39,382 bases of DNA from an archaeon (GCA_043813875.1 JBDRKP010000005.1:1-39382), one strand, 5' to 3'. Shown: positions 5,907 to 29,906, counted from the first letter of the stretch. Notes: generated from the letters alone by a model not told the origin. Program-made: numbers and translations.

Positions 5907-6524
5907 ATGGAGCCTGATCTAGTGGCCAAGTGCGACAGGTGCGGTGATTGCTGCCGGACGCAGAAGATACCATTCAATCTTGCCGACATATTTGGCATCA
6001 GTGCTCACTTAAAGATGGCCCCGGATGATTTTGTTGAGCGGTATCTTGAGCTCATCGCCGATAAGGAAGGAGAGCTGGCCTATGTCATAAAAGAGAAGCT
6101 GTGCCCTTTCCTTATCGATAATCTCTGCTCGGTTGAGGAAATAAAGCCCACTGTGTGCAGGACGACGCCATGCCCTAAAAATGAGGGCTACAGGGAATTT
6201 TCCAGGAAATATGGCGCCATGACTCTACAGTTCCTGCAGAACAGCGCTTCTGTGATGATAACACACGGACTTAATGTCGAGTATACGCAGGATTATCTTG
6301 AAAGACATAAAAAGTTTGATGAACATTCTGCTATGGAATACAGGCAGAAAATCGAGGCTGACCTGAAAAATAAACTGCTTTCGTGGATGCTGCTTAAAAA
6401 TATGGTCGCTGTCGGGGTGCATCCCAAATACCATGCAATCATTCTTGATAAATTAAAACGCAAGGGCATTATAGTAAACGCCATAACTTTTTCATGGAAA
6501 TTCTTCGAATTTCCAAGCTTTTGA
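5907..6524 (+). CDS. YkgJ/FliB-family cysteine-cluster (CxxCxxCC) protein
   Basis: CDRCGDCC...CPFL...C...KPTVCRTTP. Start placed at ATG 5907, downstream of a TTTATAA box. Confidence 0.82.
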   Translation: MEPDLVAKCDRCGDCCRTQKIPFNLADIFGISAHLKMAPDDFVERYLELIADKEGELAYVIKEKLCPFLIDNLCSVEEIKPTVCRTTPCPKNEGYREFSRKYGAMTLQFLQNSASVMITHGLNVEYTQDYLERHKKFDEHSAMEYRQKIEADLKNKLLSWMLLKNMVAVGVHPKYHAIILDKLKRKGIIVNAITFSWKFFEFPSF

Positions 6525-6776
6525 ACCGAACCATATTTTTAATGGTTCAAAATCGTGCCAAGCTTTTGAGACAAGCTCAAAATAGACAAATGGCGTTTCC
6601 ATATCCTTAAAAATCGATGATTTTTAGGATTTTGAAAATTTGTATCAAATTTCCAATTTTCGAAATTCGAAATGGGTGAACATTTCGAAAATCCTATGAA
6701 TCGAAGATTCATAAGGATAGTTGACACCTCTTGGTTTTTGGCATAGTTTGTCCATTTATTAACGATGTCAACTATA
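6470..6776 (+). repeat. Modular hairpin element copy A (307 bp, largest copy)
   Basis: TATAGT, stem AAACGCCAT/ATGGCGTTT enclosing TCRTG/CAAGC modules, CCAT, two ATCCT..AGGAT hairpins, then ATAGTTGACA/TGTCAACTAT, ending in ACTATA. Confidence 0.85.
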
Positions 6777-6837
6777 ATTATATATAGTCCAGTTTAACAT
6801 AAAGTATGTTAATGGGTTCTAAAAAAGTGGCGGTTGA

Positions 6838-8193
6838 ATGAGCAAAATTCCGGATAAATCCAAGGGTTCAGATGTCAAAGACAGCGTGAAGAAGATACCC
6901 AAGCCTACGAAAAAGGCGGACAAGAAAGAAGAGGCGAAGCCGGCCGATGCTTCATTGGACACCAAAGCCGAGGACAAAAGGCCAGAGATGTCTCCTGAGC
7001 AGAAGAAAGAGCAGGAAGAAAGGTTCAAAATCGCCCAGAAGTTCACGAAGTCTCTTATAGAGAAATTCAAGCGCAGCGTCAAAGCAGTCGTTGTCTATGG
7101 ATCGACTGCCACCGGGAAGCATAAGACGACATCTGATATCGATGTTTTTGTGATCATGGATGACACCAAAATCGAGCAGGAGATCCCGCAGGAAGTCAAA
7201 GACCGCATATGGAATGAGATGCTGAAGATCGCAAAAGATACTGATTCCAACATCACTTTGCAGGCGTTCATGTTCATCACTGAATTCTGGGAGAATCTTC
7301 GGACTGCCGAGCCGGTCCTTATCGCGATATTGCGTTCAGGTGTGCCTGTCTTTGATGTAGGCATATTCATGCCGGCAAAGAGGATGCTGCAGCGCGGCAA
7401 GATTCCGACCACGCAGGAGGCGGTGCAGAAAAAGATTTCTGCTGCTCCACAGTTTGTCGAATATGCGGAGTCAAGGGTCAAGTCTGCGGGGCATTATCTT
7501 GAGCAGGCGATGGCGACGGCAGGGAATGCCGTGCTGATGTATATCGGCCGGATGCCGCAGAATAAGGAGGATGTCCCGAGCGCATTAGAGGAATCTTTTG
7601 TGAGGGAGAAGCTTCTTGAGGAGCGCTATGTGCACGATGCTGAGAGCATCCGCAAATTCGCAAAGGAGGTCGAGCATAAGACCGGTGAGGATCTCGTCGG
7701 TGTGGGCGCTGAAGTCGATAAGTATCTCAAGCTCACTAATGAGTTTGTCAAGAGGATGGCTGACCTTATAAAAGAGCTTGAGCAGAGGCGAAAGTCGAGC
7801 GTGCTGATGAAGACTTATAAGACGTTCCTCAAGGCGAATGTGGGTGCGCTAAAATATATCGGCGTCAATCCGCCTGAATCGCTGAATGATCTGCCGCAGG
7901 TCATGAATAATAATTTCCCTGATCTCAAAGATAGTTATGCTGATCTTTTCAGCAATCTCACCCGGAATCTCACATTGATAAAAAAAGGCAAGGCTGAGGC
8001 GATACCTGAGCGTGATGTCTATCAGCTTAGAGAGCAGACAAAGTCGTTTGTGATCATGCTTGGCAAGAAGCTTAAAGACATGAAGGATAAAGGAGAGATC
8101 AGCCCATCTAAAGATTTTAATGTGGATAATGCGGATGACCATCCCACTCTTAACCCGCCTGATGACCAGAAAAAGAAACCCGATTCTGGCTGA
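6838..8193 (+). CDS. Nucleotidyltransferase (Pol beta/MNT fold) with helical HEPN-like C-terminal region
   Basis: YGSTATG...SDIDVFVI (GS...DxD); Lys-rich disordered N-terminus; helical C-terminal half. Confidence 0.8.
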   Translation: MSKIPDKSKGSDVKDSVKKIPKPTKKADKKEEAKPADASLDTKAEDKRPEMSPEQKKEQEERFKIAQKFTKSLIEKFKRSVKAVVVYGSTATGKHKTTSDIDVFVIMDDTKIEQEIPQEVKDRIWNEMLKIAKDTDSNITLQAFMFITEFWENLRTAEPVLIAILRSGVPVFDVGIFMPAKRMLQRGKIPTTQEAVQKKISAAPQFVEYAESRVKSAGHYLEQAMATAGNAVLMYIGRMPQNKEDVPSALEESFVREKLLEERYVHDAESIRKFAKEVEHKTGEDLVGVGAEVDKYLKLTNEFVKRMADLIKELEQRRKSSVLMKTYKTFLKANVGALKYIGVNPPESLNDLPQVMNNNFPDLKDSYADLFSNLTRNLTLIKKGKAEAIPERDVYQLREQTKSFVIMLGKKLKDMKDKGEISPSKDFNVDNADDHPTLNPPDDQKKKPDSG

Positions 8194-8365
8194 GTAGAGC
8201 AGCTAGAGTATGGACTGTGATGAAACGCCTGAAAATGCCTGAATCTTACTGGAATTTCAGCCAAAAACAAGCTCAGATTTATCGATTCTGTCCAGCCGTG
8301 ATTTAACTTTCTGATAGACCTCTAAATATAATTCATCTGCATCTTCTGCATTCATATCATCTGTT

Positions 8366-8800
8366 TCATAGTAAAAAAATCGGTGCAGGTTGTTGCTTAA
8401 AGGAGTCGAATTCGGCCCCTTTAAAATCAGGGTTGTTTAAATTCTCCCGCAATACCAGAAACTCAATTGTATTACGGCTTCCCATCCAGTTTTTTATTGC
8501 ATCTTTAGAAGGAATTGACTGGATTATTCTGAAAAGAGATTTAGTATTAGCGCAATCGGTCATATAATCTTTACTGTCAGAGGACCGTAGTTTCAGTTGT
8601 ATCCAAATTGGGGACAACTCAAGTTGCTTGAATTCCCTGTCTTTTATCTTGCCCCAATATTGGCGGGGTTTCGGACTCTCAGTCAAAACCTCAATAATAT
8701 CAATAACAGAAAAATACCATTCATCATTATGCCAAAGTCTCCTTATATTCTTGCCCTGGAATACAACCAATGCGCTATCTGAATCCATTTTTACACTCAT
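8366..8800 (-). pseudogene. Chimeric remnant: Bro-N domain joined to an internal KilA-N fragment
   Basis: IRRLWHNDEWYFSVIDII...RIIQSIPSK is Bro-N-like and stops abruptly; IKNWMGSRNTIEFL..ENLNNPDFKGAEFDSFK is mid-KilA-N-like. Confidence 0.7.
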
Positions 8801-8967
8801 CAGATAAAATATTGCATGTAATTATATATAGCTTATCAGTATAGCATGCCGATAGAATGCTTTTGCGCATCGGCCTTTATGTCTTTACCCTGCCTTCATA
8901 TTCAATCTGCACCATTGATATCCAAACATCAATAAACTATAAAAAGTCTCGAACATATAGTTGTCCT

Positions 8968-10272
8968 ATGTCTTCAGTCTGTTTCTATTTTCAAGTACAT
9001 CAGCCACGCCGCCTTAAGCCAGGCCATGTGATTGATACCCGCGGCTGCATGACGCCAGAGAAGCTTGAGCGTGAGATTTTTGATGACAAGAAGAATAAAG
9101 AGGTCTTAAAAAAGGTGGCTTCAAAGTGTTATTATCCTGCCAACAAGACGATGCTTGAGCAGATCGATCTTTATAAGAACCAGAAGAGGAAGTTCAAGAT
9201 ATCTTATTCTATGCCTGGCCTGTTTCTTGAGACAATGGAGAGGTTCGATAAGGATCTTCTTGAGACTTTTGTGCAGCTTGCAAAAACAGGCTGCGTGGAG
9301 TTTTTGAATGAGACCTATTATCATTCGCTGTCGAGTTTCTGGGGCAAGGATACCGAGAGGCCGGAGTTCGTTGAACAGGTGAGGCTGAATCACCAGAAAA
9401 TAAAGGATATCCTTGGTGTCGAGCCCAGGGTTTTTCGGAATACGGAGCTTCTTTATAATGACCTGATAGCAAAGACTGTGGAGAAGATGGGGTATATCGG
9501 TATTCTTGCAGAGGGGATTGAGAGGGTGCTTGAGGGCTGGAAGTCGCCGGAGCACATATACAGTCCGCCGGGTTCGAATATTGCTGTGCTTCTTCGGCAT
9601 TATTCGCTGAGTGACGATATGTCTTATCGGTTCTCTGCCAGGTGGTTCAAGCACTGGCCTGTGACCGCTGAGAAATACTCGACGTGGGTCGCTGCGTGCC
9701 AGGGGGAGACTATCAATCTTTTTATGGATTATGAGACGTTCGGCGAGCATCAATGGGACGATACAGGCATCTTCTGGTTTCTTAAGCATCTGCCGTATGA
9801 GATCATGAAGTGGGAGCATGTCGAATTTCTTACGCCGAGCGAGACGATTGAGAGGTATCCTGTCAGGGGAACGCTATCCGTGAATGAGTTTGATACGATA
9901 TCGTGGGCGGATATGGAGAGGGATTCTTCGGCATGGCTGGGCAATAGCATGCAGCAGCTTGTCTTCAGTGAGCTTGAAAGGGTAGGGAATGTCGTCAAGA
10001 TGACGCGGAACCCTCATCTTCTGAATATATGGAGGTCGCTGCAGACGTCTGATCATCTTTATTATTGCTGCACCAAGCACTGGTCGGATGGTGATGTGCA
10101 TAAGTATTTCAGCCCGTACGATACGCCGCACCAGTCGTTTGAGGGGCTGATAAAGGCGCTTGCGCAGCTTGAAATCGTTGCAGTGAGGACTCTGAATTCG
10201 GATGCTGAAAGGGAGAGGGCTATTGATCATGAGAAGCATACTGTGAGGTATCCCGGGTCTCAAGAAGTGTGA
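8968..10272 (+). CDS. Glycoside hydrolase family 57 (alpha-amylase-like)
   Basis: FQVHQP, ETYYHSL, FRNTEL (nucleophile Glu), MDYETFGEH (acid/base Asp), QTSDH. Start trimmed to ATG 8968. Confidence 0.93.
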   Translation: MSSVCFYFQVHQPRRLKPGHVIDTRGCMTPEKLEREIFDDKKNKEVLKKVASKCYYPANKTMLEQIDLYKNQKRKFKISYSMPGLFLETMERFDKDLLETFVQLAKTGCVEFLNETYYHSLSSFWGKDTERPEFVEQVRLNHQKIKDILGVEPRVFRNTELLYNDLIAKTVEKMGYIGILAEGIERVLEGWKSPEHIYSPPGSNIAVLLRHYSLSDDMSYRFSARWFKHWPVTAEKYSTWVAACQGETINLFMDYETFGEHQWDDTGIFWFLKHLPYEIMKWEHVEFLTPSETIERYPVRGTLSVNEFDTISWADMERDSSAWLGNSMQQLVFSELERVGNVVKMTRNPHLLNIWRSLQTSDHLYYCCTKHWSDGDVHKYFSPYDTPHQSFEGLIKALAQLEIVAVRTLNSDAERERAIDHEKHTVRYPGSQEV

Positions 10273-10327
10273 AGCTTTATCTGATGTGTAGAAACAAACT
10301 TGATTTTTTAGAAGTATTGCCCTGGGA

Positions 10328-10843
10328 TTACTCTACGATGACCCTGCTCTTTACGCCCAGCTTATCACCGGCACGTCTCATGGCTTCTTTTGCAATTGTT
10401 ATGTGTTCTGAATTGACGTTGATACTTATAATCGGCTGGTCTTTCTTTACACGAGCTGCTGTGCTTGTCGGTTTCCCGAACGGGTGTGACATGCCCTGAT
10501 AGAAACGGTCTGCCTGCGCGATGGCAGCCTGGGCGTGCTCTCTTAATACCTGGTGCGGGTAGACGCGCACTTTGAGGAAGTAGTTCTTTTCTTCTGTGTT
10601 CTTCCTGATGTAAGCATTAGCAGCGACACGGCATGCTTCAAGAGCATTGTGCCTGAGTTGTGAGTTTTTGTCAATGACAAGGTATAGTGTGTGGTCGAAG
10701 TCGCCTTTCGCGTTACCCATGTTGAAAGTGTTCAGTTTAGAGCCTGGAACTCCTTTGATGTATGATTTGCGGTGTACCTTGATGGCTCTTCTTGTGTACG
10801 GTCTTTTGAATTCCTTGTAAATCCTCGCTGGTCTTAATCCCAT
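10328..10843 (-). CDS. rpl10e: 50S ribosomal protein L10e (uL16)
   Basis: MGLRPAR...RPYTR, RHNALEACR, YPHQVLREH, ADR..GM..PFGKP, EAMRRA..KL. Confidence 0.96.
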   Translation of the reverse strand: MGLRPARIYKEFKRPYTRRAIKVHRKSYIKGVPGSKLNTFNMGNAKGDFDHTLYLVIDKNSQLRHNALEACRVAANAYIRKNTEEKNYFLKVRVYPHQVLREHAQAAIAQADRFYQGMSHPFGKPTSTAARVKKDQPIISINVNSEHITIAKEAMRRAGDKLGVKSRVIVE

Positions 10844-11030
10844 GTCGTATCACTTTTTTAGTAATTTTTATAATCAAAATATGTGTTTTGTTGTGCAGAA
10901 TATCATCATAATTCAACCTTAAGCTTTAAAAAGTTATTTGTCTGTCCGTTTCGGATTTGGGGTTTAATGAGATGTTTTATATATGACGTGCGTTCAAATA
11001 AAAATGTATAGAGATTTGTGTGTGAAATCT

Positions 11031-11756
11031 ATGAGAATGGTGCTGCTTGGGATTCTTCTGGTTTTAGCGCTTTTGCTTAATCCTATGGTGTTTTTGTTCC
11101 TGTCTCTCGCGTTTTTTGTCATCCTTTTCAGGCATGAGATAGCTCATGTGCTGACAGAGGTTGCTTTGTTTATCGGGCTTTTGGTGATCCTCATCTTCAT
11201 GTTCTCGAGCAAAGCCATTCTTGTGATATTGACGGCGCCTTTCAGGAATTTTGATATATTGTGGGCGATCCTGCCGCTGCTGCTTGCGTGGATTGTTCTT
11301 GAGGTCTATTTCAGCAAGCATGAGGATGAGAATATGGGGTGGAATACTGCTGTCTGCAATGGGCTGATGCTTTTCTGGGCAGGGCTGAATATATTGTTTT
11401 CATTGAGCAGGACAGGGTATGTCCTGATGAAGATCGCGGTCATGGTCATTCTTATGGGGTATGGCGTCTTTCTTGCGTATGCGGCGTTTACGCACCGGTA
11501 TTCTTCTGGCCTGACTTTCAGGCTCGCGTCGACGAATGTGGTCTATTATTCCGGGATCATGGGGGTCCTTTATGCCCATGATGTTGTCCTGCTTACTGTG
11601 CGGAGTGTCTCTTCGTCTTTTGTTCTGCTTGGATTGATACTTCTTTTGATCAGGATCGTGAAGAAGATCAGGAGGGTGCGCAGAAATGGAAGCAAGACTG
11701 ATGATGCCGGCCTGCCTGAGAAGGATGGGCGTGATGCGGCGCCTATAGTATCCTAA
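11031..11756 (+). CDS. Hypothetical multi-pass membrane protein
   Basis: Several hydrophobic segments, GWNTA loop motif, basic C-terminal tail. The start is uncertain (10983-11037). Confidence 0.75.
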   Translation: MRMVLLGILLVLALLLNPMVFLFLSLAFFVILFRHEIAHVLTEVALFIGLLVILIFMFSSKAILVILTAPFRNFDILWAILPLLLAWIVLEVYFSKHEDENMGWNTAVCNGLMLFWAGLNILFSLSRTGYVLMKIAVMVILMGYGVFLAYAAFTHRYSSGLTFRLASTNVVYYSGIMGVLYAHDVVLLTVRSVSSSFVLLGLILLLIRIVKKIRRVRRNGSKTDDAGLPEKDGRDAAPIVS

Positions 11757-12012
11757 AGCTGTCATGCATCTCTCTGGTTTTTGACTCTGCTGTTTCTACG
11801 CTGTCTACACGTGATGCTTCTGGGCCAATTTTCAGTTCGTCTATGAAATCGGCTATTTTGTCTTCTTCTCCTATGGCCAAGGCTTCCACTCTTCCGTCAT
11901 CGAGGTTTTTTACCCACCCGTTGATGCCGTGCCTTTCTGCCGCGTCTTTGGTGAATGCCCTGTACCAGACGCCCTGGACTCTTCCAGAGACTAAGATGTG
12001 AATGCATATCAT
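11743..12012 (-). CDS. acyP: Acylphosphatase
   Basis: SGRVQGVWYR, GWVKN..DGRVE; GGTGA 4 nt upstream. Confidence 0.95.
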   Translation of the reverse strand: MICIHILVSGRVQGVWYRAFTKDAAERHGINGWVKNLDDGRVEALAIGEEDKIADFIDELKIGPEASRVDSVETAESKTREMHDSFRIL

Positions 12013-12030
12013 GTCATCACCGAAATCTGT

Positions 12031-14340
12031 TCATCTGTATTCGCGCTCTATTATCTCTCGTATCTTTTTTGCTTTTTCCTCACCGATGCCGTCCACTTTC
12101 ATGAGGCGTTCGTCGCTTGCGGTTATCACTTTCTTTACTGACCTGAATTGCGTGAGGAGGCGCTTTGCAAGGACGGAGTTGATGTTTGGGAGCATGCCTA
12201 TGATCGATTCCTGTTGTTCTGCCAAAGTCTGCGGTTTTTTTGTGCCTTTTATCTGGATCGTGCGGCTCTTGTCGTCCTGCTCGCGCCTCGCGAGCGTGAT
12301 TATGAGTTCTGCTGTCTCTTTTGATGTATTTGTCCAGAGGATCGGTATGCGGAAGTCTACTGAGATGGAGTTTATTGCGCCTTTTATGGCGTTCGGGTGG
12401 ATGTTTCTTTGGCCGTAGAGATCCGTGCCTTCAAGGATCAGGATGGGGCGGTCGAAGCTGGATGCCATAGACTTCATCTGGCTGAAGAGCCTGCCGTCTA
12501 TTATGGACTGGAGGAAGTCTTCGTATGTCTTTCTTTCGATGCAGAGCCTGTCGCTCAATAGGAAGTCCCCTACTTCAAGCTGGGCTGCGCGCAGTTCGAA
12601 CCCGTCATTTTCAAGCTCTTTTAGCTCTTTTAAGAGCTTTCTTTCTCTGGTGTCTGTGTATACGATAACGGGTTCCCTGTTCGAGTATCTGTCTAGTGAT
12701 TCCTGTTTTTTTATTTTCAGGTCTGTGTCTTTCTTTTTGGAGATGGAGACTGCGCCGGAATTGAAGCTGTCTTTCAATGTCTTCAAGACTGATTTCATCT
12801 TGCTTTCCTTGTGTCTTGAGGACCAGTAATATGCGTCGTCGATTGTTCCTTTTGCGACCAGTATGTGGACTTCTCCCTCTTTCAGCCTGCCTGTCCTCCC
12901 GCGGCGCTGTATCGATCGGATCTCTGAGGGTATCGGCTCGTAGAATATGACTATGTCCACTTTCGGGATGTCGAGGCCTTCTTCTGCGACGGATGTAGCG
13001 ACGAGGCAGTTGTATTTGCCGTCCCTGAACTCGTCTAAGATCTCAATCTGCCTTTTTTGCGAGAGGCCTTTGCGCTGGCCTATGAATGCCAGGGGCTTTA
13101 TCTTTTCGTTTTCAATGTGGTTTTTTATCTCGTCAACGGTCTTTACGTATTGCGTGAAGATTATGACTTTCTTGTTTCCAGTCAGATTCTTTTCAAGAAT
13201 CTTTTTTATCTCGTCCATCTTTGGATGGATCATGTTTTCTTCGACTATGAAATTCACGATGTTTTCCGCCATCCTGAAATTCTCGTCGGCCAGTATGCTT
13301 CTTACTGCTTTTGTCTTCTGGTCGCCTTTCATCTTGATTATGTAATCCTGCAGCTGTCTTGGACCCTGGCTTTCCAGGAGCTCTATCGCATGGTTGAGCT
13401 TTATGCACTGGGCGATGAGGGACATCGCGTTGTACATGGAGGGGTCTTTTGTCTTTACTGCCTCTGATGATACCTGTTTTTGCATGTCAAGGAGTATCTT
13501 TTTTGATACTTTTTTTGTGGTTATCAGGTGCATCTTTTTCAGCTGGTCCAGGCGATCGTTGAGCGCGGCGTCGAAGTATTTCCTTGCCCTTATATAGTCT
13601 GTCGGCAGGTCTATCTGGACCCAGTTCATGTTGATGGGCTGGATATATTCTTTTACGTCCCAGTCTTTTTCGGTCCTTATCTCTACGTTCTCTATGAACA
13701 GGTTGCCGCAGATGATGCCTATTTTCTCTTTCGTGCCCCCGGGCGATGCTGTGAGGCCAAGGATGAGCGGGTTAGCTGATGTCTCCATGTATTTTCTTGC
13801 GATGTATGTGTATGCGTAGTCGCCTGATGTACGGTGGGCTTCGTCAAAGCATATCAATGAGAAGTCGTCGAGCTTTAGCTTGCCTGTGACAAGGTCGTTT
13901 TCTACGACCTGCGGTGTCGAGAAGAATACCTGGTGGGATTTCCATAGCTTTTCGCGCTCAACCGGTGAGTCTTTTCCTGTTATCGTGGCGAATCGATCCA
14001 TGTCTATGAGCATGGCTTTCCTGAATGATGTGTCGTGCTGGTTGACGAGGGGTTTGGTGGGGGCAAGAATGAGGATTTTTGAGTCCGGGTGTTTTGATAG
14101 CCTGATGGCAGTGAGGCCGATCGCTACCGGCGTCTTTCCTGTGCCTGTCGGGAGGACGACAAGTGTGTTCTTTTTTGAGGCTGACGCGATGATGGTCTCC
14201 TGGTAGAGCCTTTTTTCGATCGAGTTCTCTTTTATCAATGGGTGCGTGAAGTATGATGATTCTTGTGGTTGTTCTGATTTTCCGGGAGCGCTGGGAAGGT
14301 CAGTTGTCTTTTTATCTTCTGCGGCCGGAGTTTCTTCCAT
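12031..14340 (-). CDS. hef: Hef (FANCM-like SF2 helicase fused to ERCC4 nuclease and HhH)
   Basis: PTGTGKT, DEAH, TAS, EEGLD, QRRGRTGR; GDF...ERK nuclease motif; C-terminal GIG hairpin. Confidence 0.96.
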   Translation of the reverse strand: MEETPAAEDKKTTDLPSAPGKSEQPQESSYFTHPLIKENSIEKRLYQETIIASASKKNTLVVLPTGTGKTPVAIGLTAIRLSKHPDSKILILAPTKPLVNQHDTSFRKAMLIDMDRFATITGKDSPVEREKLWKSHQVFFSTPQVVENDLVTGKLKLDDFSLICFDEAHRTSGDYAYTYIARKYMETSANPLILGLTASPGGTKEKIGIICGNLFIENVEIRTEKDWDVKEYIQPINMNWVQIDLPTDYIRARKYFDAALNDRLDQLKKMHLITTKKVSKKILLDMQKQVSSEAVKTKDPSMYNAMSLIAQCIKLNHAIELLESQGPRQLQDYIIKMKGDQKTKAVRSILADENFRMAENIVNFIVEENMIHPKMDEIKKILEKNLTGNKKVIIFTQYVKTVDEIKNHIENEKIKPLAFIGQRKGLSQKRQIEILDEFRDGKYNCLVATSVAEEGLDIPKVDIVIFYEPIPSEIRSIQRRGRTGRLKEGEVHILVAKGTIDDAYYWSSRHKESKMKSVLKTLKDSFNSGAVSISKKKDTDLKIKKQESLDRYSNREPVIVYTDTRERKLLKELKELENDGFELRAAQLEVGDFLLSDRLCIERKTYEDFLQSIIDGRLFSQMKSMASSFDRPILILEGTDLYGQRNIHPNAIKGAINSISVDFRIPILWTNTSKETAELIITLARREQDDKSRTIQIKGTKKPQTLAEQQESIIGMLPNINSVLAKRLLTQFRSVKKVITASDERLMKVDGIGEEKAKKIREIIEREYR

Positions 14341-14486
14341 GAGTTATCTTGCGCTTGATGTTTTAAATATATTTTATGTGTGGCTTGCCGATAGAATTGG
14401 TGTTATGGTTTAATTATTACTATGGCTTGAAAGCATGCAAATAAATAAACATATAACTTTACTATCATAGAGTTATAAGTGATATT

Positions 14487-14870
14487 ATGGTATCTAAGTA
14501 TGTCATAGTTGCGGAAGACACTCCAAATGATTTAGAACTCAATCTGGCTTTTATTAAAAGATTCATTGAGGATAATAATTTGGATGTGGAAATCCATCAG
14601 GTGTATGATGGACGACCTCTTGTAGATAAAGTCAAGGCTGCTGAAGTGGCATATGATATTATCTTTACTGACAATCGGATGCTTGAGCTGTATGGTAGTG
14701 AGGCGATAAAACAAATAAGGGCTCTTGGGTTCAAAATGCCGATCTGCATGGTGAGCGGTGATGATTATTCTGTTGAGAGGGCTGTGTTAGATTCAGGGGC
14801 TAATGATTTCATCCACAAGCCTGTTTCTTATGGGGCTTTTGAGGCTGTTCTGAAGAAGTACTTGCTGTAG
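14487..14870 (+). CDS. Stand-alone response regulator receiver (CheY-like)
   Basis: AED acidic pocket, IFTD phosphoacceptor, SG, FIHKP. Confidence 0.88.
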   Translation: MVSKYVIVAEDTPNDLELNLAFIKRFIEDNNLDVEIHQVYDGRPLVDKVKAAEVAYDIIFTDNRMLELYGSEAIKQIRALGFKMPICMVSGDDYSVERAVLDSGANDFIHKPVSYGAFEAVLKKYLL

Positions 14871-14986
14871 GTGAGTGGTACTTGGTTTTTAGGGGCGAGA
14901 TAGAAACAAGTCTTACCTGAATTTTGCAGGGTATTTTTGGGTTATAAATGAGGGCTGAGGTTCTTGGTATGGCTAAAAGCCGGGTG

Positions 14987-16258
14987 CTAGTCTTTTATGG
15001 CGCCGGGGCTGCCGCCTGCGTGCCAGCTCATGCGCGGGCGCATCCTTAATTGGATTATCCTTTCCGAGTTGTCGTCGAGGACCAGTGCTGCGCCTTTTAC
15101 TCTCGGGAGGGCGTCGTAGTAGTCGGCGATCCCGTATTTCTGGTATGTCTGCATCGTGCTTGCAAGGGCATTGATGTCGTCGCTTGATGTCAGACGGTGG
15201 GATATCACGAGGTCGCACTGGGATATGGCTTCCTGGTGGAGCTTGTTTGGCATCTGGGTGGCAAGGACCAGTGATACTCCCGGCTCTCTTCCGATCTTTA
15301 CCCATTGGAGGAGCGGTCCTGATGAGGGGGTCATGCCTTCTCTTGGCAAAAACTGGTGGGCTTCGTCTATAAGCATCCATGTTATCGGCATATGCTGGCT
15401 TTTTTTTGTGCCGCCCATATCATCGAGCTCTTCCTGCCTGCGCGCTTTCATCCTCTCTTCAAGGATCTTTCTTGCGAGTAGCCCGACGACGAGCGAGTTC
15501 ACAGACCAGCCGCCGCTTGAGAGGCCGAACTGGCTTACGTCGATCACGCATATCTTGCCTGGCTTGATTATATCGAATATCGATGTCCCTTTCGGGTTGA
15601 AGATACCCCAGCTCTCTGCCACGATGAACCTGTTGATGAGGGCTTCTTTTGCGACATGGTCTACGTTCTGCTCTCCTATCTTTTCGATGATGTCCTCAAG
15701 AGAGAAGTCTTTTTTGTCCTCGTTCATCATCTTTATGACTTTCGATAGCAATAAACCCATCTCAGTGTCGAGGTCTATGTTGAATGTGAGCGCCCATGAG
15801 CCGATGTCAAGTTCGCTTGGCTTGAAGCTGTAGGTGCCGTCGTATGGTATCTTGTTCTCGTTGAAGAGACTGACAAGGCCCTCGGGGATGAGCACGTCTA
15901 TCGGGAATCCTTTCGGTTTTGAGTGCCATGACGCGAGGAGCTGGAAGTCGCGCTCGTTGGGCTCTTTCATCGACCAGTATATGCCCATGGTGTCTATTAT
16001 CAGGGCTGCCATGTTCATCCTGATATCATCCGGCTGGTTGGCTATCTCTTCTGCGATGGAGCCCATCGAATATGATTTACCCTGGCCACGCTTGCCGAAC
16101 AGGCCGATTATATGAGGGCGCGCGAGGTCGATGCGCACAAAAGTGGTCAGATGCTGATCCCCTTTCTTTCCGACAAAGTGCTTCCCGATGATTCCCGTGC
16201 CTTTGGTACCGAATTTTTCAAGGTCGTCCAGGCTTCTGCCTATTATGATTTCGTGCAT
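14987..16258 (-). CDS. HerA/FtsK-superfamily ATPase (DUF87-like)
   Basis: Walker A GKRGQGKS, Walker B LIDEAH, GRE.GVSLVLATQ. Start trimmed to MHEIIIGR because the ORF-track extension overlaps plus-strand genes. Confidence 0.9.
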   Translation of the reverse strand: MHEIIIGRSLDDLEKFGTKGTGIIGKHFVGKKGDQHLTTFVRIDLARPHIIGLFGKRGQGKSYSMGSIAEEIANQPDDIRMNMAALIIDTMGIYWSMKEPNERDFQLLASWHSKPKGFPIDVLIPEGLVSLFNENKIPYDGTYSFKPSELDIGSWALTFNIDLDTEMGLLLSKVIKMMNEDKKDFSLEDIIEKIGEQNVDHVAKEALINRFIVAESWGIFNPKGTSIFDIIKPGKICVIDVSQFGLSSGGWSVNSLVVGLLARKILEERMKARRQEELDDMGGTKKSQHMPITWMLIDEAHQFLPREGMTPSSGPLLQWVKIGREPGVSLVLATQMPNKLHQEAISQCDLVISHRLTSSDDINALASTMQTYQKYGIADYYDALPRVKGAALVLDDNSERIIQLRMRPRMSWHAGGSPGAIKD

Positions 16259-16315
16259 GTATATCTTATGGAATTCGCAAGATATATATCTTTGTCGAAC
16301 TAATAGTAGGTGTAT

Positions 16316-16489
16316 ATGAAGCTTGAGTCTATACTTAAGGATAAGGACGTGGTGAATAATCTGTCCTCTCTTCTTGAAAAGCATACTGTCGGCGGGGAGA
16401 TCGAGTTCGATGATACAGAGATACAGATTTCTGATTACAAGGCTGTGCTGAACGGCAGGCTGAATATTAAGGTTCTGAAGGTGGTCTAG
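16316..16489 (+). CDS. Small hypothetical protein (57 aa)
   Basis: Below the ORF-track cutoff: MKLESILKDKDVVNNLSSLLEKHTVGGEIEFDDTEIQISDYKAVLNGRLNIKVLKVV; AGGTG upstream; stop directly abuts the next ATG. Confidence 0.7.
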   Translation: MKLESILKDKDVVNNLSSLLEKHTVGGEIEFDDTEIQISDYKAVLNGRLNIKVLKVV

Positions 16490-16717
16490 ATGGTAATGGC
16501 GAAGATTACGCTGGATGATAAGCATGTGTGCAGTGCGCACATGAAGGGCGAGGCGCTGCATCTGTCGGTGAGCAATTATTCCAAACTGCTTGTTTCGCCG
16601 CGGTTCGTGAAGCTTGCGCTTTCGCTAAAAGCGGCAACGAGGGATGCAGAGGGTACGGAAAAAGGGCTTGATGTCAAGTTTGATGCGGGTTTCATCAAGG
16701 GTATTTTTTCAAGATGA
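16490..16717 (+). CDS. Small hypothetical protein (75 aa)
   Basis: Directly follows the 57-aa ORF, AGGTGG upstream, codon style matches neighbouring plus-strand genes. Confidence 0.65.
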   Translation: MVMAKITLDDKHVCSAHMKGEALHLSVSNYSKLLVSPRFVKLALSLKAATRDAEGTEKGLDVKFDAGFIKGIFSR

Positions 16718-16785
16718 GCTGCTCATACTGCTTAAGGAATTGCCGGAAGTTCTGATGCATCTTTTTTTTGGCTTTGGTGCTCTTG

Positions 16786-16886
16786 TATAGTCAAAGACAG
16801 AACTTTTTGCACTGTCTTTGCCATATAGATTAACGCCTTTTTGTCTATTGGATAAGCAGGTTATGGTGGTAAAGGCGTTAACTATA
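16786..16886 (+). repeat. Modular hairpin element copy C (101 bp, minimal two-hairpin form)
   Basis: TATAGT-CAAAGACAG/CTGTCTTTG-CCAT-ATAG..TAACGCCTTT/AAAGGCGTTA-ACTATA. Confidence 0.82.
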
Positions 16887-16897
16887 CAAAAAAATTA

Positions 16898-19192: not shown

Positions 19193-19274
19193 TTTTTCTA
19201 TGCTGCTGCAAATAGAAAAAGCTTGAAATCCGAATATTGCGCAGAAATTTCATGATTTTTCGGATTTTTACTAT
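19193..19274 (-). repeat. Hairpin-chain element copy E between convergent genes
   Basis: Minus strand reads ATAGT-AAAAATCCG-AAAAA-TCATG-AAATTT..ATTT-CAAGC-TTTTTCTAT/ATAGAAAAA-TCA. Confidence 0.78.
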
Positions 19275-19280
19275 CTATCT

Positions 19281-20387
19281 TTACTGGCTCCAGTATATGA
19301 AGTCCAGCTCTTTTTGTGGGTTTTTCGGCAGGATTGTCGGGTCTATGAATGTCGCCATGCCGGGGCCGGGGTATTTGCCGTTGGTGGTGTTTCCTTCAAG
19401 GCGGTCGAAGAATGTGGGGCCCAGGTCATGCTCTATGAAGCATGTGGTTCCCTGTTCTGTTATTATGCTGTTTATCCATCTGTCAGCCTCGTCACTCATC
19501 GCTGCAAGGTATGTGTTTTCGGTGTTGGAGTATGCGTCGCCTGTGTCGATGATTTTTGGGATGGTTGTGCCTGCGTCATCATCTGTTGTCTCTGCTATGA
19601 TTCCCTTGAACTCGTTTATGTCTGATGTGGTGAACTTTGAGATGTTTATTGTGACGAGTATCTTTTCGGCTCTCTGTGCGCCTGTGAGCGAACTGATCCC
19701 GGCTGTGTCGAGCGATCTGAATACTTTGCCCACGGTCCAGTTGGTTGCGGCTGTCTTTGATGTGAGCGCTTTGCCGTATGTTCCCGTGAGGTTGCATGGT
19801 ATCATTGCTGTCGAGAACAGGAGATTGCTTTTGACTGTGTTCAAGGGGTCTTCGAATGAGTTGTAGTCTATCGTTATGTTCTGTGTTATGTTTTTATTCA
19901 CACGTATCCCGGATACAGAATCGAATATGTCTAATTCGTAAGTTGTTACAAGTTCGATATCGTACAGATCTATCTGCCTGATAGTGTAATCTTTGAGGGC
20001 TATTGTGGTGCTTAGTCCTATCTTATTCATTATGTCCTGTATTGAGATGGTCCAGTCGTTTATTGTGCTGTTTTCCATTATCTGTTGAGGCGTCCCGTTG
20101 TATATTCCTGTGATGCTGGTTTCAGTTATGGCGTTTTCTGTGTCGTTGAGGAATGTCCCGTTGGTCACAGCGTAGTCTACAAGGCTTAGGATTGCTCTTT
20201 TGGTTGCGATGTATGAGCTTCTTTCAAGGTCTTTATCTACATTGTTCAAAGTGCTCAGAATCACGTCGCTCCGGATTTTCGAGGGTTTTTCAAGGGTGTA
20301 TTGTGATGACGACTGGAGAGTTATCATGGTGATGAGTGATCCTACTATCAGAAGTGTGAACAGCGTATAAGTGTATCCTTTTTTCAT
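19281..20387 (-). CDS. Class III signal peptide (pilin-like) surface protein
   Basis: MKKG followed by hydrophobic YTYTLFTLLIV; Thr/Ser/Asn-rich with NxS/T sequons; PTFFDRLEG near the C-terminus. Confidence 0.8.
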   Translation of the reverse strand: MKKGYTYTLFTLLIVGSLITMITLQSSSQYTLEKPSKIRSDVILSTLNNVDKDLERSSYIATKRAILSLVDYAVTNGTFLNDTENAITETSITGIYNGTPQQIMENSTINDWTISIQDIMNKIGLSTTIALKDYTIRQIDLYDIELVTTYELDIFDSVSGIRVNKNITQNITIDYNSFEDPLNTVKSNLLFSTAMIPCNLTGTYGKALTSKTAATNWTVGKVFRSLDTAGISSLTGAQRAEKILVTINISKFTTSDINEFKGIIAETTDDDAGTTIPKIIDTGDAYSNTENTYLAAMSDEADRWINSIITEQGTTCFIEHDLGPTFFDRLEGNTTNGKYPGPGMATFIDPTILPKNPQKELDFIYWSQ

Positions 20388-20391
20388 CTCG

Positions 20392-25005: not shown

Positions 25006-26174
25006 ATCGTCCTGTTTGTGTATATGTACAGGTGCATTATGCCTGGCCTTATCTCATTGCTGTCGCCAATCATTATGAAGCGTGTTATCGGTACCAGGTT
25101 TTCTGAGTTGATTACCGCGTCGTCGCCAAAGGATATTTCTATGCCGTCCATGTCAAGGCCTGCGATGGGGTTATTGTTATCAATTCCCGCATCCGGCAGA
25201 TAGTATATTTTCCCACTGCCGTAATACCATAGGCATACTATACAATAGTTGTTATCTGTGTTATCTTCTACGATTGCTTTATCAACTTCTGTCTTTTTGA
25301 ATTTCTTGCCCTGGCTTTGGAATTGTATGAATTCTCCTACGTTGCTGTCCGGGAGAAGAATGTCTTTGTTGATGTATGTGCCTTGGTTGTCGCCATTATT
25401 ATATGGTGTTATGATGTCGTCAAATACGTATTCCAATACATCGTAATCGCCTGTATTGATGGTTGTTATGTATGTCCCGCCTTCGTATACAAATTCCCGG
25501 ATAGCGTTTTTGTCGGCAGGAGATATTGCCGTCACTTGCGGATTTTCGAGCATGATTGTCTGGTAGGCAGAGATGTTTGATACTAATACGGAGAAGAGTT
25601 TGTCTTGGGTGGACGGGGTGTAATCCCCTTTCTTGTACACGTATCTTGCATTGTTTGCAGGGACCGCTATTGCCGATCCCCAGTAGTAATCCCATATGTC
25701 ATAATATGTCGCCAGAAGGCTTCTTGCGATGTCATCACCAGCATCTCTTGCGAAGACTGCTGCTGTGCCTTTTATTGCGCCACCGACTTTCAGCGGTTTG
25801 CTGTGGGGGTCAGTCACGTTTATGTAGTATTCGTATGAGCCGACGCCAAGCAATGCTTTTGAATCGCTGTAACTTAGCAGTTTGAAGTTTAATATCTTCT
25901 CTGTGTCCAGGATGTCGTCGTCTGCGTTTTTCAATCCTATCATCATGACGTCTGATGTGTTCCAGTCCGCAGGTACTCCAGGGGTGTTGATGAGTGCGTT
26001 TGATATGTAGAATGCTTTCCTTTGCATCTCTTCGGTTTTGTAGAAGCGCGTTGATTTCTCGTATGAGATATTCCATATAGTATAGCTCAGGAATAATATC
26101 GCTGTGAATATGACTATGCTGAGTATGAAGTCGGGGCTCAGTACCTGGCCCTTTTTTTTCTTAATGGCTGACAT
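25002..26174 (-). CDS. Class III signal peptide (minor pilin-like) protein
   Basis: KKKKGQ-VLSPDFILSIVIF; TPGVPADW..IGL motif; stop overlaps the next start. Confidence 0.82.
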   Translation of the reverse strand: MSAIKKKKGQVLSPDFILSIVIFTAILFLSYTIWNISYEKSTRFYKTEEMQRKAFYISNALINTPGVPADWNTSDVMMIGLKNADDDILDTEKILNFKLLSYSDSKALLGVGSYEYYINVTDPHSKPLKVGGAIKGTAAVFARDAGDDIARSLLATYYDIWDYYWGSAIAVPANNARYVYKKGDYTPSTQDKLFSVLVSNISAYQTIMLENPQVTAISPADKNAIREFVYEGGTYITTINTGDYDVLEYVFDDIITPYNNGDNQGTYINKDILLPDSNVGEFIQFQSQGKKFKKTEVDKAIVEDNTDNNYCIVCLWYYGSGKIYYLPDAGIDNNNPIAGLDMDGIEISFGDDAVINSENLVPITRFIMIGDSNEIRPGIMHLYIYTNRTI

Positions 26175-26559
26175 ATATCAAACCGTCCCTGTTTTCTATG
26201 CTGTTGAAGCCTGGATCGATTGTTCCTGTTATGTTCGGCGTGACTGATTTTGTTATGTATGAACTTGATGAATTTATTATCACGAGGTTGTCGCTTATTA
26301 TAATGTTGTATGATTCTCCCACAACTGTGGCTGGCAGTGTTATGTTTTTTGAGTATCCGTGACCGATGCCGGTTGCGATGTCGAGCTCGTATGTTACCCA
26401 TTCTGACATTTTCTGGAATTCCATGTTTCTTTTTTCTTTTATCAGGGTGAAATTGTTTTGGAGGATCGAGAGATATACTACTGTGAATACGAGAAGCGAA
26501 TATGATACCAATGTGATCAATTCCAGGCCCGATTGAGCCTTATGGCTTCTATTTTTCAT
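26161..26559 (-). CDS. Small class III signal peptide pilin-like protein
   Basis: KAQSGLE followed by a hydrophobic helix; GYSKNITLP motif. Confidence 0.82.
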   Translation of the reverse strand: MKNRSHKAQSGLELITLVSYSLLVFTVVYLSILQNNFTLIKEKRNMEFQKMSEWVTYELDIATGIGHGYSKNITLPATVVGESYNIIISDNLVIINSSSSYITKSVTPNITGTIDPGFNSIENRDGLIYVSH

Positions 26560-26612
26560 GAAGTATTGTTTGGATTGTCTAGTATAAATAGATTGGGTGA
26601 GTGATGGTGTGT

Positions 26613-26778
26613 TATACTCAAGGCATGAAATAAATGAGCAAAATTCAACAAAATACCAAATTGCTTTGAGTATCCTAACGAATCTCCGATTCGCTGGATC
26701 CTAAAATTGCCTTGCAATTTTAAGGATATGGAAAGGCACGCTACTCAAAATATTCGTAATATTCGTGCCTTTACTATA
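26613..26778 (-). repeat. Modular hairpin element copy B (166 bp)
   Basis: Minus strand reads TATAGT-AAAGGCACG/CGTGCCTTT-CCAT-ATCCTTAAAATTGC..GCAATTTTAGG-ATCC..GAATC/GATTC..AGG-ATACTCAA..TTGAGTATA. Shares TTTCCATATCCTTAAAA and the TTGGT..TTTTG..CATTTATT loop with copy A. Confidence 0.85.
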
Positions 26779-26783
26779 TCTTG

Positions 26784-27644
26784 TCATTGCCTGAGAAACA
26801 GGATCGCTATGACTGATAATATCAGGGCGAGGAGTCTTAGGGGTGTTATTTTTTCGCGGTATACTATGACTGCAAGGAAGACCGTGACCAGCATGTTCAG
26901 CCCGATTATGGGAAATATCACTGATGCCGGGCCAACTTTCAAGGCGCTCATAACTGTGTAAAATGAGGCGTAGTTGAAGATGCCGATGGCAAATCCGGAT
27001 ATTATCGCTGATCTTTTGTTGTCTTTTTTGTCGCTGAGCCTGATGTTGAGCAGTTGGGATGGTATTATCAGCCAGATGTAGCTTAAGAACATGAAGAGGG
27101 TCACGTCGTAGCTGATCGCTGCGATTTTCACCATGAATTCTGAGATCGTGGTGAAGATGGCTGTTGCTATCGCAAGGATGATGCCTGCCCTGAAGTTGGC
27201 TTGTTTGATATCTTTTTTTGAGTTGCCGCTTGACAGGAGGAGGATGACGGCTAAAAATAATAGCATCCCGATGATTGTATTCTGTGTGTATGGCTCTTTG
27301 AGTATGATTATGCCGAGGAGTCCTGTGAGCGCAAAATGTACTCTTGATACCGGCAGTGCGACGACCGCAGGTATGTGCTTGAATGATTCGATCTTGACGT
27401 GGCGGGATACGAGGTAGAATGAGGCCTGTATCGCAGCGAATATGAATATCGGGATGTAGCTGTCTGGTGCCGTGAAGCTGAAGCAGAGGGCGATGCCTGA
27501 AAATATTGCGCCTGTGATGAAGCTTGCCATGAGTACGAGGCCTGTGTTGTATCTTTTTTCTGCCACGACTTTGTATATGAAGTTCTGGATGCCGTAAAGC
27601 ATCATGCCTATTATCGAGAGTGTGAACCAGTCCATTTGTGTCAC
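26784..27644 (-). CDS. EamA/DMT-family transporter
   Basis: About 10 TM segments in two repeats; ALKVGPASVIFPI, ILKE and YREKI motifs. Confidence 0.88.
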   Translation of the reverse strand: MTQMDWFTLSIIGMMLYGIQNFIYKVVAEKRYNTGLVLMASFITGAIFSGIALCFSFTAPDSYIPIFIFAAIQASFYLVSRHVKIESFKHIPAVVALPVSRVHFALTGLLGIIILKEPYTQNTIIGMLLFLAVILLLSSGNSKKDIKQANFRAGIILAIATAIFTTISEFMVKIAAISYDVTLFMFLSYIWLIIPSQLLNIRLSDKKDNKRSAIISGFAIGIFNYASFYTVMSALKVGPASVIFPIIGLNMLVTVFLAVIVYREKITPLRLLALILSVIAILFLRQ

Positions 27645-28159: not shown

Positions 28160-28185
28160 TTTCAGGCATAGTCTGTTTTTTGCGA

Positions 28186-28671: not shown

Positions 28672-28738
28672 TAGATGTCTTTGGGTGTGGGAGGTTAAAA
28701 AGGTTGAGTTTATGGTCTGCTTTTTGATAATGTCTTGT

Positions 28739-29104
28739 CTATAAACCTTCTTCGTCTGTCACGGGTTCGAATAATCCTAATTTCTCTAGAATTTCTTGCG
28801 TTTGTTCATATAACTTTTTGTCTGTCTTTTCTATGGATACAATTGGTATGCAGCGCCCTTCGAGTGCGTTTTTTTGGGCATAATATATGCTGATTTTCTT
28901 GTCTGACAGGAATCCGGTTTCTATCTCTATATTTCCATAGAAATCTTTGGCTAAGCTGGGCTTTATCTGCATATAATGTATTTCGTTGCCGTATTTTGTG
29001 AGTAATTGGTTAAGGATTTGACCTATGGTGCCTTTATCTTCTTTGCAGCATTCTGTTAAGATGTCGTCGTATGTCTGAAGTATGTTTTTCGAAGTTAGTT
29101 CCAT
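28739..29104 (-). CDS. Hypothetical protein
   Basis: About 120-aa ORF; GGTGA lies just upstream of ATG 29104 (alternative start GTG 29113). Confidence 0.6.
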   Translation of the reverse strand: MELTSKNILQTYDDILTECCKEDKGTIGQILNQLLTKYGNEIHYMQIKPSLAKDFYGNIEIETGFLSDKKISIYYAQKNALEGRCIPIVSIEKTDKKLYEQTQEILEKLGLFEPVTDEEGL

Positions 29105-29254
29105 TATTTTCACCTATATCTCGTAATATCTTTTTTATTCTATGGGAATCTTTATATTTATTTGGATTTTCGCATCTTGTTGGTGATTACAGATAAGTGA
29201 TTTTGCTTTGAGCTATCTATCATAAATAAATATTTCTATGTATAGTGATACTTT

Positions 29255-29716
29255 ATGGCGAATAGGAAGGCTATCATCAAGAGAACTGTCATCCTGCTTG
29301 TAATTGCCGGTTTTGTCTTTGTTTTTGTAGCGATTGGACAGAAGCAGGGGCAGGATCACAACACTGTCTGTTTTGATGATTCGTGCGTCGATGTGGAGCT
29401 TGCTGTGACGCCTGATGAGATCATGACAGGCCTGATGAACCGGGAGCATCTTCCTCAATCCCGCGGGATGCTTTTTATTTTCGAGGATGAGGGAGTGCAT
29501 ATGTTCTGGATGAAAAATACGCTTATACCTCTTGATATCATCTGGATGGATCCTTTTGGGAAGATCATCTATGTTGAGCGGGATGCGCCTCCCTGTACTA
29601 CGCCGGTATGTCCTACATATGGGCCGGCTGCCGGTTCTAAGTATGTGCTTGAGGCCAATGCAGGATATGCTGAGAAATACGGTGTCAATGCCGGTGATGT
29701 GGCAAGGATCAGATGA
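29255..29716 (+). CDS. DUF192 family protein with N-terminal membrane anchor
   Basis: GLMNRE, GMLFIF, FWMKNTLIPLDII, YVLEANAG. Confidence 0.92.
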   Translation: MANRKAIIKRTVILLVIAGFVFVFVAIGQKQGQDHNTVCFDDSCVDVELAVTPDEIMTGLMNREHLPQSRGMLFIFEDEGVHMFWMKNTLIPLDIIWMDPFGKIIYVERDAPPCTTPVCPTYGPAAGSKYVLEANAGYAEKYGVNAGDVARIR

Positions 29717-29782
29717 TTTATTCTTATCGGAATAATAGTGTCAGTAGAGTATTTAAGTGTTCCATATTAATACTATTTCCGT

Positions 29783-29883
29783 TATAGTCAATCGACTAAC
29801 TTTTCGTGGTCATAATCTGACCATCATACATGATTGACTATATGGGGATCCACAATCATTAAAATGCTGGTGGATTCACTATA
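29783..29883 (-). repeat. Modular hairpin element copy D (101 bp) upstream of metK
   Basis: Minus strand reads TATAGT-GAATCCAC/GTGGATCC-CCAT-ATAGTCAATC/GATTGACTATA with an inner TGGTCA/TGACCA hairpin. Confidence 0.82.
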
Positions 29884-29906
29884 AAACAATTTTGAGGTGT
29901 AATTTT

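Follow-up and report, generated by a model that had tools for sequence, protein, structure and literature searches.

What kind of element can occur four times in one archaeal contig, each time with the same order of parts and each time with a different stem? The question is raised by contig C5 (JBDRKP010000005.1:1-39382), which is 39,382 nt in length and was analysed as a whole (the window). It belongs to the 1.64-Mb assembly GCA_043813875.1 (G000; 90 contigs, 91.5% complete) of a DPANN archaeon. A first-pass annotation of the window had described four loci, A to D, as a dispersed and mostly intergenic family of two-hairpin elements that are conserved in structure and divergent in sequence. 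Our analysis indicates that the family is probably a non-coding, hairpin-ended miniature inverted-repeat transposable element (MITE) of the IS630/Tc1 type, which duplicates TA and is mobilised in trans. We read it neither as an element of the HUH or single-stranded DNA (ssDNA) kind nor as a known RNA. A MITE of this kind is ordinary in itself; a well-kept hairpin at each end is unusual. Each end folds on itself, and the stems differ between subfamilies yet stay Watson-Crick paired. The four copies and their parts are as follows.

6470..6776, plus strand: copy A, the long form of 307 nt, recognised by sequence, a fold z of -7.5, a covariance-model match to the 3' module and an empty site in genomes G007 and G003.
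6470-6475, plus strand: 5' TATAGT of copy A, read from the sequence.
6476-6484 and 6590-6598, plus strand: arms of hairpin 1 of copy A; the loop between them contains three small hairpin modules.
6599-6602, plus strand: CCAT of copy A, followed by three more internal hairpin modules.
6717-6726 and 6766-6775, plus strand: arms of hairpin 2 of copy A, with the terminal ACTATA at 6771-6776.
16786..16886, plus strand: copy C, compact, 101 nt, recognised by sequence, a covariance-model score of 90.2 bits (E 6.5e-14) and a fold z of -5.9.
16792-16800 and 16812-16820, plus strand: arms of hairpin 1 of copy C, with CCAT at 16821-16824.
16881-16886, plus strand: ACTATA at the end of copy C, up to which hairpin 2 extends.
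26613..26778, minus strand: copy B, a 166-nt form with two internal hairpin modules, recognised by sequence, a fold z of -6.0, a covariance-model match to the 3' module and its absence at the syntenic site of G003.
29783..29883, minus strand: copy D, compact, 101 nt, of the GAATCCA-type subfamily, recognised by sequence, a covariance-model score of 64.5 bits and a fold z of -4.4.

All four loci have TATAGT, a stem of 8–9 bp, a CCAT linker and a terminal hairpin of ~60 nt that ends in ACTATA (AGTATA in copy B). They were re-read at the positions and on the strands, and with the grammar, that the first-pass annotation had assigned to them, and the length of C and D, exactly 101 nt each, is confirmed from the sequence. 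The stems are different in each copy and complementary, with one mismatch in copy D, whose closest subfamily is the GAATCCAA subfamily. In copy B the terminal hexamer has changed together with its local partner, as had been noticed, i.e., the AGTAT of the 3' end pairs locally with ATACT. The z values compare single strands with dinucleotide shuffles, which all four copies exceed by far in folding. The reverse strands of C and D, the two tested, also fold (z -6.7 and -3.7), and the fold therefore does not tell which strand counts. A covariance model built from 20 compact copies (R1) also finds copy D (E 3.1e-9) and the 3' hairpins of B (4.5e-5) and A (1.6e-4). Besides a weak reverse-strand match of C itself, A to D are the sole family loci in the window at E <= 1. 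There is no tRNA in the window and no Rfam match at the gathering score, in agreement with the view that the family is not a described one. A permissive Rfam scan (E <= 5, positions 6000-30200) gives three chance-level matches only. One of them touches a copy; it is to a microRNA model, with 21.8 bits against a gathering score of 109.

Further copies, which the notion of a family implies, are present genome-wide. With up to 64 candidates scored per genome, R1 gives 62 matches in G000, and 15–62 in every one of the seven congeneric genomes; the usual match length is 103 nt. A pattern search of the genome (TATAGT, an 8-nt arm, a loop, the reverse-complement arm with at most one mismatch, CCAT) returns 58 places, ~56 of which are convincing and have the full grammar. 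Searches with nhmmer and two end-module profiles give 39 5' modules and 66 3' modules. A 5' module is upstream of nearly every 3' module, at times with a worn terminus, e.g., TAAAGT. Copy D is not among the 66 3' modules, so this number is a lower bound. The 57 of these 66 copies that could be delimited are 94–474 nt in length (29 at 94–107, 12 at 145–166 and 16 at 184–474 nt) and total 9.5 kb, or 0.58% of the assembly, and the density of this single family is ~40 copies per Mb. The ends are sharp: TATAGT starts 47 of the 57 and ACTATA ends 48, and sequence outside the terminal hexamers is unrelated between copies. Within family f1, R1 matches 13 of 15 genomes, including 4/4 in genus g2 and 2/4 in genus g3. 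In other families of the order the matches are 4/10 (f4), 1/1 (f5) and 1/2 (f8) genomes; there are none in f2 (0/5), f3 (0/3), f6 (0/4) and f7 (0/1), and the 19 genomes scanned from other parts of the domain have none either.

For copy A, a precise empty site is found in each of two sister species. A gene that encodes a CxxCxxCC-domain protein and a nucleotidyltransferase gene are adjacent in G007 and G003 also. The filled site in G000 reads ...CAT-TA-element A-TA-ATTATATATAGTCC, and the empty site in the two relatives reads ...AAT-TA-ATTATATATAGTC..., with a single TA and 13 identical bases adjoining. One TA has become two. The right-hand side of the site is as follows.

6775..6791, plus strand: right-hand TA of the duplication and the conserved block ATTATATATAGTC, from alignment and raw sequences.

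The ATTATATATAGTC block probably serves the nucleotidyltransferase gene (6838-8193) as TATA box. At orthologous sites, copies B and D are absent as well, with borders that are blurred by divergence. At the syntenic site of B in G003 the spacer is 74 nt, compared with 251 nt, and upstream of metK in G004 and G007 there are 58 nt, compared with 136 nt, between the conserved anchors that enclose D. R1 matches none of eight orthologous loci of A and D, four of which are metK. The genes that flank copy C are not neighbours in relatives, so that there is no orthologous site to compare with site C; near HerA orthologues, relatives have copies elsewhere and in the opposite orientation. Public reads, in the form of low-depth Logan contigs from groundwater and sediment metagenomes, are uninformative on empty sites, i.e., none bridges an element and none has a joint at an element border.

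The family also inserts into itself. The hairpin-2 loop of one subfamily is CTAAATA in three uninterrupted copies. Two copies have another family member at the same TA of CTAAATA, with gains of 101 and 157 nt, in each case an element and one TA. This right-hand junction at the CTAAATA loop recurs in a further copy, which is probably a third nested insertion at that TA. Copy number, sharp ends, nested copies and absence at orthologous sites bear out the proposal of a dispersed, non-autonomous mobile family.

The target is A/T-rich. The flanks of 54 copies are 71% A+T, and TA is their sole fixed part. On the left, position -3 is A in 35 copies and position -2 is A or T in 47. On the right, 42 copies have a purine at +1, and T occupies +2 in 33 copies and +3 in 29; G never occurs at +2. 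In the pooled count, A at -3 reaches 64/108 (p 4e-7). The TA gained at insertion and the A/T-rich target support the suggestion that the ends are TA-bounded ends of the IS630/Tc1-mariner kind.

The two ends of the element are similar beyond TATAG. Comparison of the 5' end with the reverse complement of the 3' end gives a score of 6.2, and 3.18 +/- 0.33 in shuffles. This end-to-end similarity has a z of 4–5.7 in three subfamilies and 0–3 in the commonest ones. By eye, an inner block consisting of AAC, a T-run and GGAC is mirrored at the opposite end. Within the genus, G000, G005 and G006 have DDE_3 (PF13358) genes that score above the curated cut-off. In the order, 8 of 41 genomes have PF13358 at E <= 0.001, seven of them over the cut-off; metagenome-assembled genomes (MAGs) drop repeats, so that the lack of PF13358 in a MAG is uninformative. 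PF01359 (mariner Transposase_1) is found in 0/41 genomes and also not in the controls, and its result is uninformative. Complete insertion sequences of ~1.1 kb are present in G005, G018 and one metagenome contig. They are TA-flanked and begin with TATAGC or TATAGT. A transposase search in metagenome contigs gives one locus, L124, which is of the same insertion-sequence group as that of G005. Seven insertion-sequence ends were compared with 46 MITE ends, and the best of 46 scores for shuffled sequence served as the yardstick. Two ends exceed it: the left one of the G005 insertion sequence, which resembles the 3' end of GAATCCAA copies (its best match among the 46, p about 0.007), and one from G018, which resembles the 5' end of CAAGGCAC copies (p about 0.01). 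For a transposase gene with the same ends as the family, the outcome is mixed: two insertion-sequence ends from related genomes match two subfamilies, and no insertion sequence of this genome matches.

Several observations weigh against an IS630/Tc1-type MITE. The remaining five of the seven insertion-sequence ends match no MITE end better than shuffles do, and no autonomous element was found with the ends of the commonest subfamilies (AAAAGTCAT, AAACGCCAT and CAAAGACAT stems). The only DDE_3 gene of G000, on contig C62, is without TATAG ends and without clear inverted repeats, and this locus was dropped as a partner. G018 has several IS630-type genes yet no R1 match. The insertion-sequence ends do not fold: five of six have z values between +0.49 and -0.81, and the sixth (z -2.58) has its hairpin away from the terminal repeat. 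This implies that the hairpins belong to the MITE, and a transposase that acts on double-stranded DNA (dsDNA) offers no obvious reason for them. The target of the 54 copies is asymmetric at -1/+1 on the element strand, with a preference for A at -1 and for a purine at +1 (chi-square 19.9, p 2e-4), which symmetric double-strand integration does not predict. This asymmetry may result from the coding-strand purine skew together with a 42:22 bias in the orientation of copies. Finally, a two-base duplication is formally indistinguishable from an element that contains one of both TAs.

Structural models of the ends show extensive base compensation. The RNAalifold model has 23 pairs in two helices, with compensatory double changes in 15 of them. 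Among the 20 compact copies, 96.5% of 456 cells are paired, compared with 73.6% in shuffled sequences (0/500 shuffles reach the observed value) and 31–42% in slid-partner controls. Cells that are changed on both sides number 99, and 28 in shuffles. A set of 53 distinct copies from other genomes has 94.9% of 1167 cells paired and double changes in 18 of the 23 pairs, in an alignment that was fitted to R1 and hence leans toward the model. Two stem positions of one subfamily occur in all four combinations, each with a matching change in the partner. The statistics from both sets extend to the family what had been noticed in the four loci, i.e., stems that vary and remain complementary. G-T pairs are rare (7/456 and 11/1167 cells). 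This fits symmetry at the DNA level better than an RNA under selection, though many of the changes are transversions.

B-type copies, where the 3' hexamer is changed with its local partner and the 5' hexamer is unchanged, show that local pairing was kept and end-to-end identity lost at that position. It had been proposed that local pairing, rather than identity of the terminal inverted repeats, is constrained. The first part stands, in that pairing is kept and wins at one position in the B-type copies; the second does not, as inverted-repeat identity also holds.

The loop of hairpin 1 is 11–17 nt in compact copies and 57–61, 99–107, 153 or 330 nt in others, and the arms are still paired. Similar loop inserts are present with different stems at different loci. 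Pairing across loops of such variable length argues against the half-sites of a protein dimer on a straight duplex and for a folded strand or a cruciform. Half-sites on dsDNA are an unlikely cause of the covariation, given that copies with arms 11 nt apart and copies with arms up to 330 nt apart have both spread. As the copies are at non-orthologous sites, the compensation arose while element lineages multiplied. We infer that foldable ends favour spread, with selection on the element's own multiplication and not on each host locus. The covariation is evidence of kept pairing, and not of recognition by fold plus linkers as proposed in the first-pass annotation.

Long copies are strings of short hairpins, which extend the element from ~103 to 474 nt. 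Located between hairpins 1 and 2 are a hairpin of an A-run and a T-run, a hairpin of the GCGAATC type, which has compensated variants of its own, and a longer unit rich in TTTCGAAA. Others are inside the loop of hairpin 1, and copy A has three modules at each of the two places. Overall there are at least six or seven kinds of small modules, which may themselves be mobile units that are gained and lost separately.

In the mechanism that we propose, both ends would be bound by a DDE transposase from the IS630/Tc1-mariner superfamily whose gene is located elsewhere. Each end has the terminal TATAG(T), then a variable stretch of 9 nt and the conserved inner block (AAC..T-run..GGAC, mirrored at the opposite end). 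The transposase, whose identity we infer together with its cut-and-paste chemistry, would excise the element and paste it into the TA of an A/T-rich site of the approximate form A-W-N-TA-N-W-T, duplicating the TA. TATA boxes and gene ends fit this target, and copies would accumulate just upstream of promoters. Insertions at times clip the last codons of a gene, as with copy A, or would swap a TATA box for the TATA-like end of the element, as with copy D. The variable stretch of each end pairs with an internal complementary arm and forms hairpin 1 or hairpin 2. Short hairpin modules are gained or lost between the two hairpins or in the loop of hairpin 1, and only copies with foldable ends would continue to multiply. 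A stronger version, which we regard as doubtful, is that spread requires each end to fold back, as a cruciform or as ssDNA. The IS630-type transposase or another partner would then read the shape and the linkers (TATAGT, CCAT, inner blocks) and not the 9-nt stem. If true, the family would be a structure-dependent DDE-type MITE, and this would explain why one scaffold has been refitted with many stems and why arms are paired across 57–330 nt of inserted modules.

The position of the copies relative to genes is of significance for a first alternative, namely that the host has co-opted the MITE as a portable promoter or terminator. TATA boxes would be exchanged for the TATA-like termini, and T-runs in the loops would terminate archaeal transcription for one of the two orientations. 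All four copies in the window are just upstream of a gene start. Copy A abuts a TATA-rich block. Copy C is located between a divergent HerA-like gene (14987-16561, minus strand) and an open reading frame (ORF) at 16967-19192 (plus strand), and ends 14 nt upstream of the TTTATATA box. Copy B starts 5 nt past the stop of an EamA-family gene (26784-27644, minus strand) and ends 28 nt before a TATA box and 53 nt upstream of the ATG of ORF 26161-26559. The 5' end of copy D (29883) is ~23 nt from the start codon of metK. The end of D and its flank represent a TATA-like box ~23–33 nt before this start codon, at a place where the alignment with G004 and G007 shows an AT-rich box in the relatives. D may thus have donated a promoter that replaces the metK TATA box. 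The distance of 0–28 nt between the ends of A, B and C and TATA boxes also fits host use, as do the conserved T5 runs, which are in both loops and on one strand only. Genome-wide, by counts that rest on crude ORF calls, the downstream gene is on the element strand in 42 cases and on the opposite strand in 22 (p 0.017), which agrees with a promoter role as well. There are 20 divergent, 9 convergent and 33 tandem contexts.

Co-option by the host is nevertheless unlikely as an explanation of the family. Copies are near promoters because the target resembles a TATA box, i.e., the A/T-rich TA target alone accounts for the placement. A terminator would predict an excess of copies that are downstream of, and co-oriented with, the upstream gene; there is no such bias (30 vs 34), and termination was rejected as the main role for this reason. 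The conserved blocks of the loops are mirrored at both ends, as transposase sites would be.

By the crude ORF calls, 12 of the 66 3' modules share more than 20 nt with an ORF. The first-pass description is corrected for copy A, which is not purely intergenic and takes over the last codons of the upstream gene.

6469..6524, plus strand: altered 3' end of the CxxCxxCC-domain gene (ORF 5841-6524), from the ORF list, Pfam and orthologue alignments.

The native last codons of this ORF are lost, and its final 18 codons and the stop are within copy A, with the ORF end at 6524. The stop of the gene in G007 and G003 is a TAG inside the TATA-rich block of the next gene.

A second alternative is an HUH-type element (IS200/IS605-like, PATE or REP/RAYT-like), which moves as ssDNA and has subterminal hairpins that are read by a Y1 transposase. 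In its favour, the hairpin at each end has a covarying stem. The near absence of G-T pairs is expected of DNA, arms that are paired across 57–330 nt of extra hairpins are sensible only for a folded strand or a cruciform, and the asymmetry of the target at -1/+1 is also consistent with it. A Y1_Tnp fragment is in fact present at the end of contig C84. The ends, however, are inverted repeats, and a TA is gained with each insertion. IS200/IS605 elements are not known to have terminal inverted repeats or to make a duplication, and they insert beside a fixed 4–5-nt target. Here the conserved flank is TA only, within a roughly palindromic A/T-rich target, with no one-sided target of 4–5 nt. The two hairpins are unlike each other in most subfamilies. 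Y1 genes are found in 4/21 genomes, whereas the MITE is in 8/8 genomes of the genus, and there is no TnpB zinc-ribbon match in the genome. No Y1 gene flanked by family hairpins was found; downstream of the sole Y1 fragment of G000 is a GC-rich hairpin without relation to the MITE. The comparison with HUH systems (IS200/605, RAYT-REP) or attC sites made in the first-pass annotation is thus not upheld, and we consider an HUH-type element very unlikely. The Y1 fragment is IS200-type (G000:C84:3171-3335, locus L125) and is cut by the contig end; the arms of the GC-rich hairpin downstream of it are GCCCGCCCA and TGGGCGGG.

The least credible alternative is that the copies are small structured RNA genes or cis-acting RNA regulators, which the host keeps for a function at each locus: the strong fold, the covariation, the slight preference for the downstream gene's strand and a 207-nt metatranscriptome contig that spans a whole copy would fit it, but copies are at non-orthologous places in sister species, insert into one another and into a gene end (A), fold alike on both strands, almost lack G-U pairs, have no bias relative to the upstream gene and have no Rfam match above chance level, and the contig may be DNA carry-over or read-through. 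The contig (depth 8.65) covers the copy at C1 ~19259-19413 with 15–24 nt of each flank. It represents a weak hint of transcription, or DNA carry-over; contigs cannot show transcript ends.

How does an IS630/Tc1-type MITE with folded ends compare with known families? RUP of Streptococcus pneumoniae duplicates TA. RUP has ~107 bp and ~110 copies, its terminal repeats resemble those of the IS630-family insertion sequence IS630-Spn1, it has been proposed to be mobilised in trans, and the terminal inverted repeats of RUP and of BOX are predicted to pair with each other (PMC3049150). The present family is similar in the size of its compact form (101–107 bp) and in its IS630-like ends. In contrast to the bacterial RUP it is archaeal, each end pairs with its own internal arm, its subfamilies have different but compensated stems, and hairpin modules lengthen it. 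BOX of S. pneumoniae consists of boxA, B and C modules and is 67–637 bp (PMC3049150). Both BOX and the family here are modular, highly folded, dispersed between genes and of a wide length range. BOX is a fixed A-Bn-C series with ISSpn2 as suggested partner, whereas here at least six or seven kinds of modules are between or inside two constant end hairpins.

Correia or NEMIS elements of Neisseria are bacterial, TA-flanked MITEs of ~100–155 bp in two length classes. They are near promoters, can supply promoter elements and have folding transcripts, and their inverted repeats of ~26 bp pair end to end. No partner transposase is known for Correia elements, and covariation of stems between subfamilies is not a known feature of them. 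They resemble the present family in TA flanks, size and promoter-near placement and differ in their end-to-end pairing. The IS630-family insertion sequences of the same order (G005:C139, G018:C32, G018:C31 and L124) have the TA flanks, TATAG termini, an inner block of type RAAGTWWT that resembles the inner block of the MITE, and the two ends that match two subfamilies at p about 0.01. They differ in that they are ~1.1 kb and encode DDE_3, their ends are without hairpins, and none matches the commonest MITE subfamilies.

A census of prokaryote MITEs made with MITE-Tracker gives the highest densities among archaea for DPANN genomes, 146 and 105 per Mb (PMC11602168). It is a census and not a set of family descriptions, and it may list members of this family. 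No description of the family was found in literature on MITEs and insertion sequences in DPANN, archaea and Nanohaloarchaeota or on IS630 and hairpins.

The family represents a high MITE load in a tiny DPANN genome, ~0.6% of the assembly by itself. In one window there are copies at promoters, a gene tail that has been rewritten and a metK TATA box that may have been replaced. A delimited model of 101–107 nt with a natural series of compensated stems can be used to ask whether an IS630/Tc1-type system depends on folded ends. It is also a model for how small archaeal genomes tolerate insertions at promoters.

R1 is in addition a lineage marker and flags contigs that are possibly mis-binned. A scan of named records with a degenerate 5'-module pattern gives 45 stretches. 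Thirty are in seven MAGs titled Candidatus Nanohalarchaeota or Nanohaloarchaea, eight are in one "uncultured archaeon" MAG, and seven are in MAGs titled Thermoplasmatota (3), Methanosarcinales (2), Bacteroidota (1) and Pseudomonadota (1). Copies or 5' modules on contigs of the MAGs with the last four titles are in records L065, L084, L059, L066, L073, L074 and L079, and the Bacteroidota and Pseudomonadota contigs have copies with full R1 score. We suspect mis-binned contigs in the oddly titled MAGs; transfer between symbiont and host is a possible alternative.

Other features were observed near copies or in the window. The metK gene (29892-31076) has the Pfam domains S-AdoMet_synt_N, M and C, which we take to represent the bacterial/eukaryotic MetK type and not the archaeal type. 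The nucleotidyltransferase and HerA-like genes are ~1.1–2 kb apart on one short contig in G004 (C88) and in G007 (C145), and in G000 ~6.8 kb with several genes is between them (8193-14987 in the window). Outside the window, a copy at C54:62741-62885 adjoins a match to ATP-synt_F (C54:62396-62638). A second, unrelated palindromic repeat (A-run, ATCATGAAATT..., T-run) is present at least three times in the window, e.g., at 4496-4596 and 19216-19260, and also beside MITE copies on contigs C34, C36 and C53. A 70-nt direct repeat with 86% identity is located at 33020-33089 and 33959-34028, 939 nt apart, in the adjacent ORFs 32323-33159 and 33238-34104, which are probably tandem paralogues.

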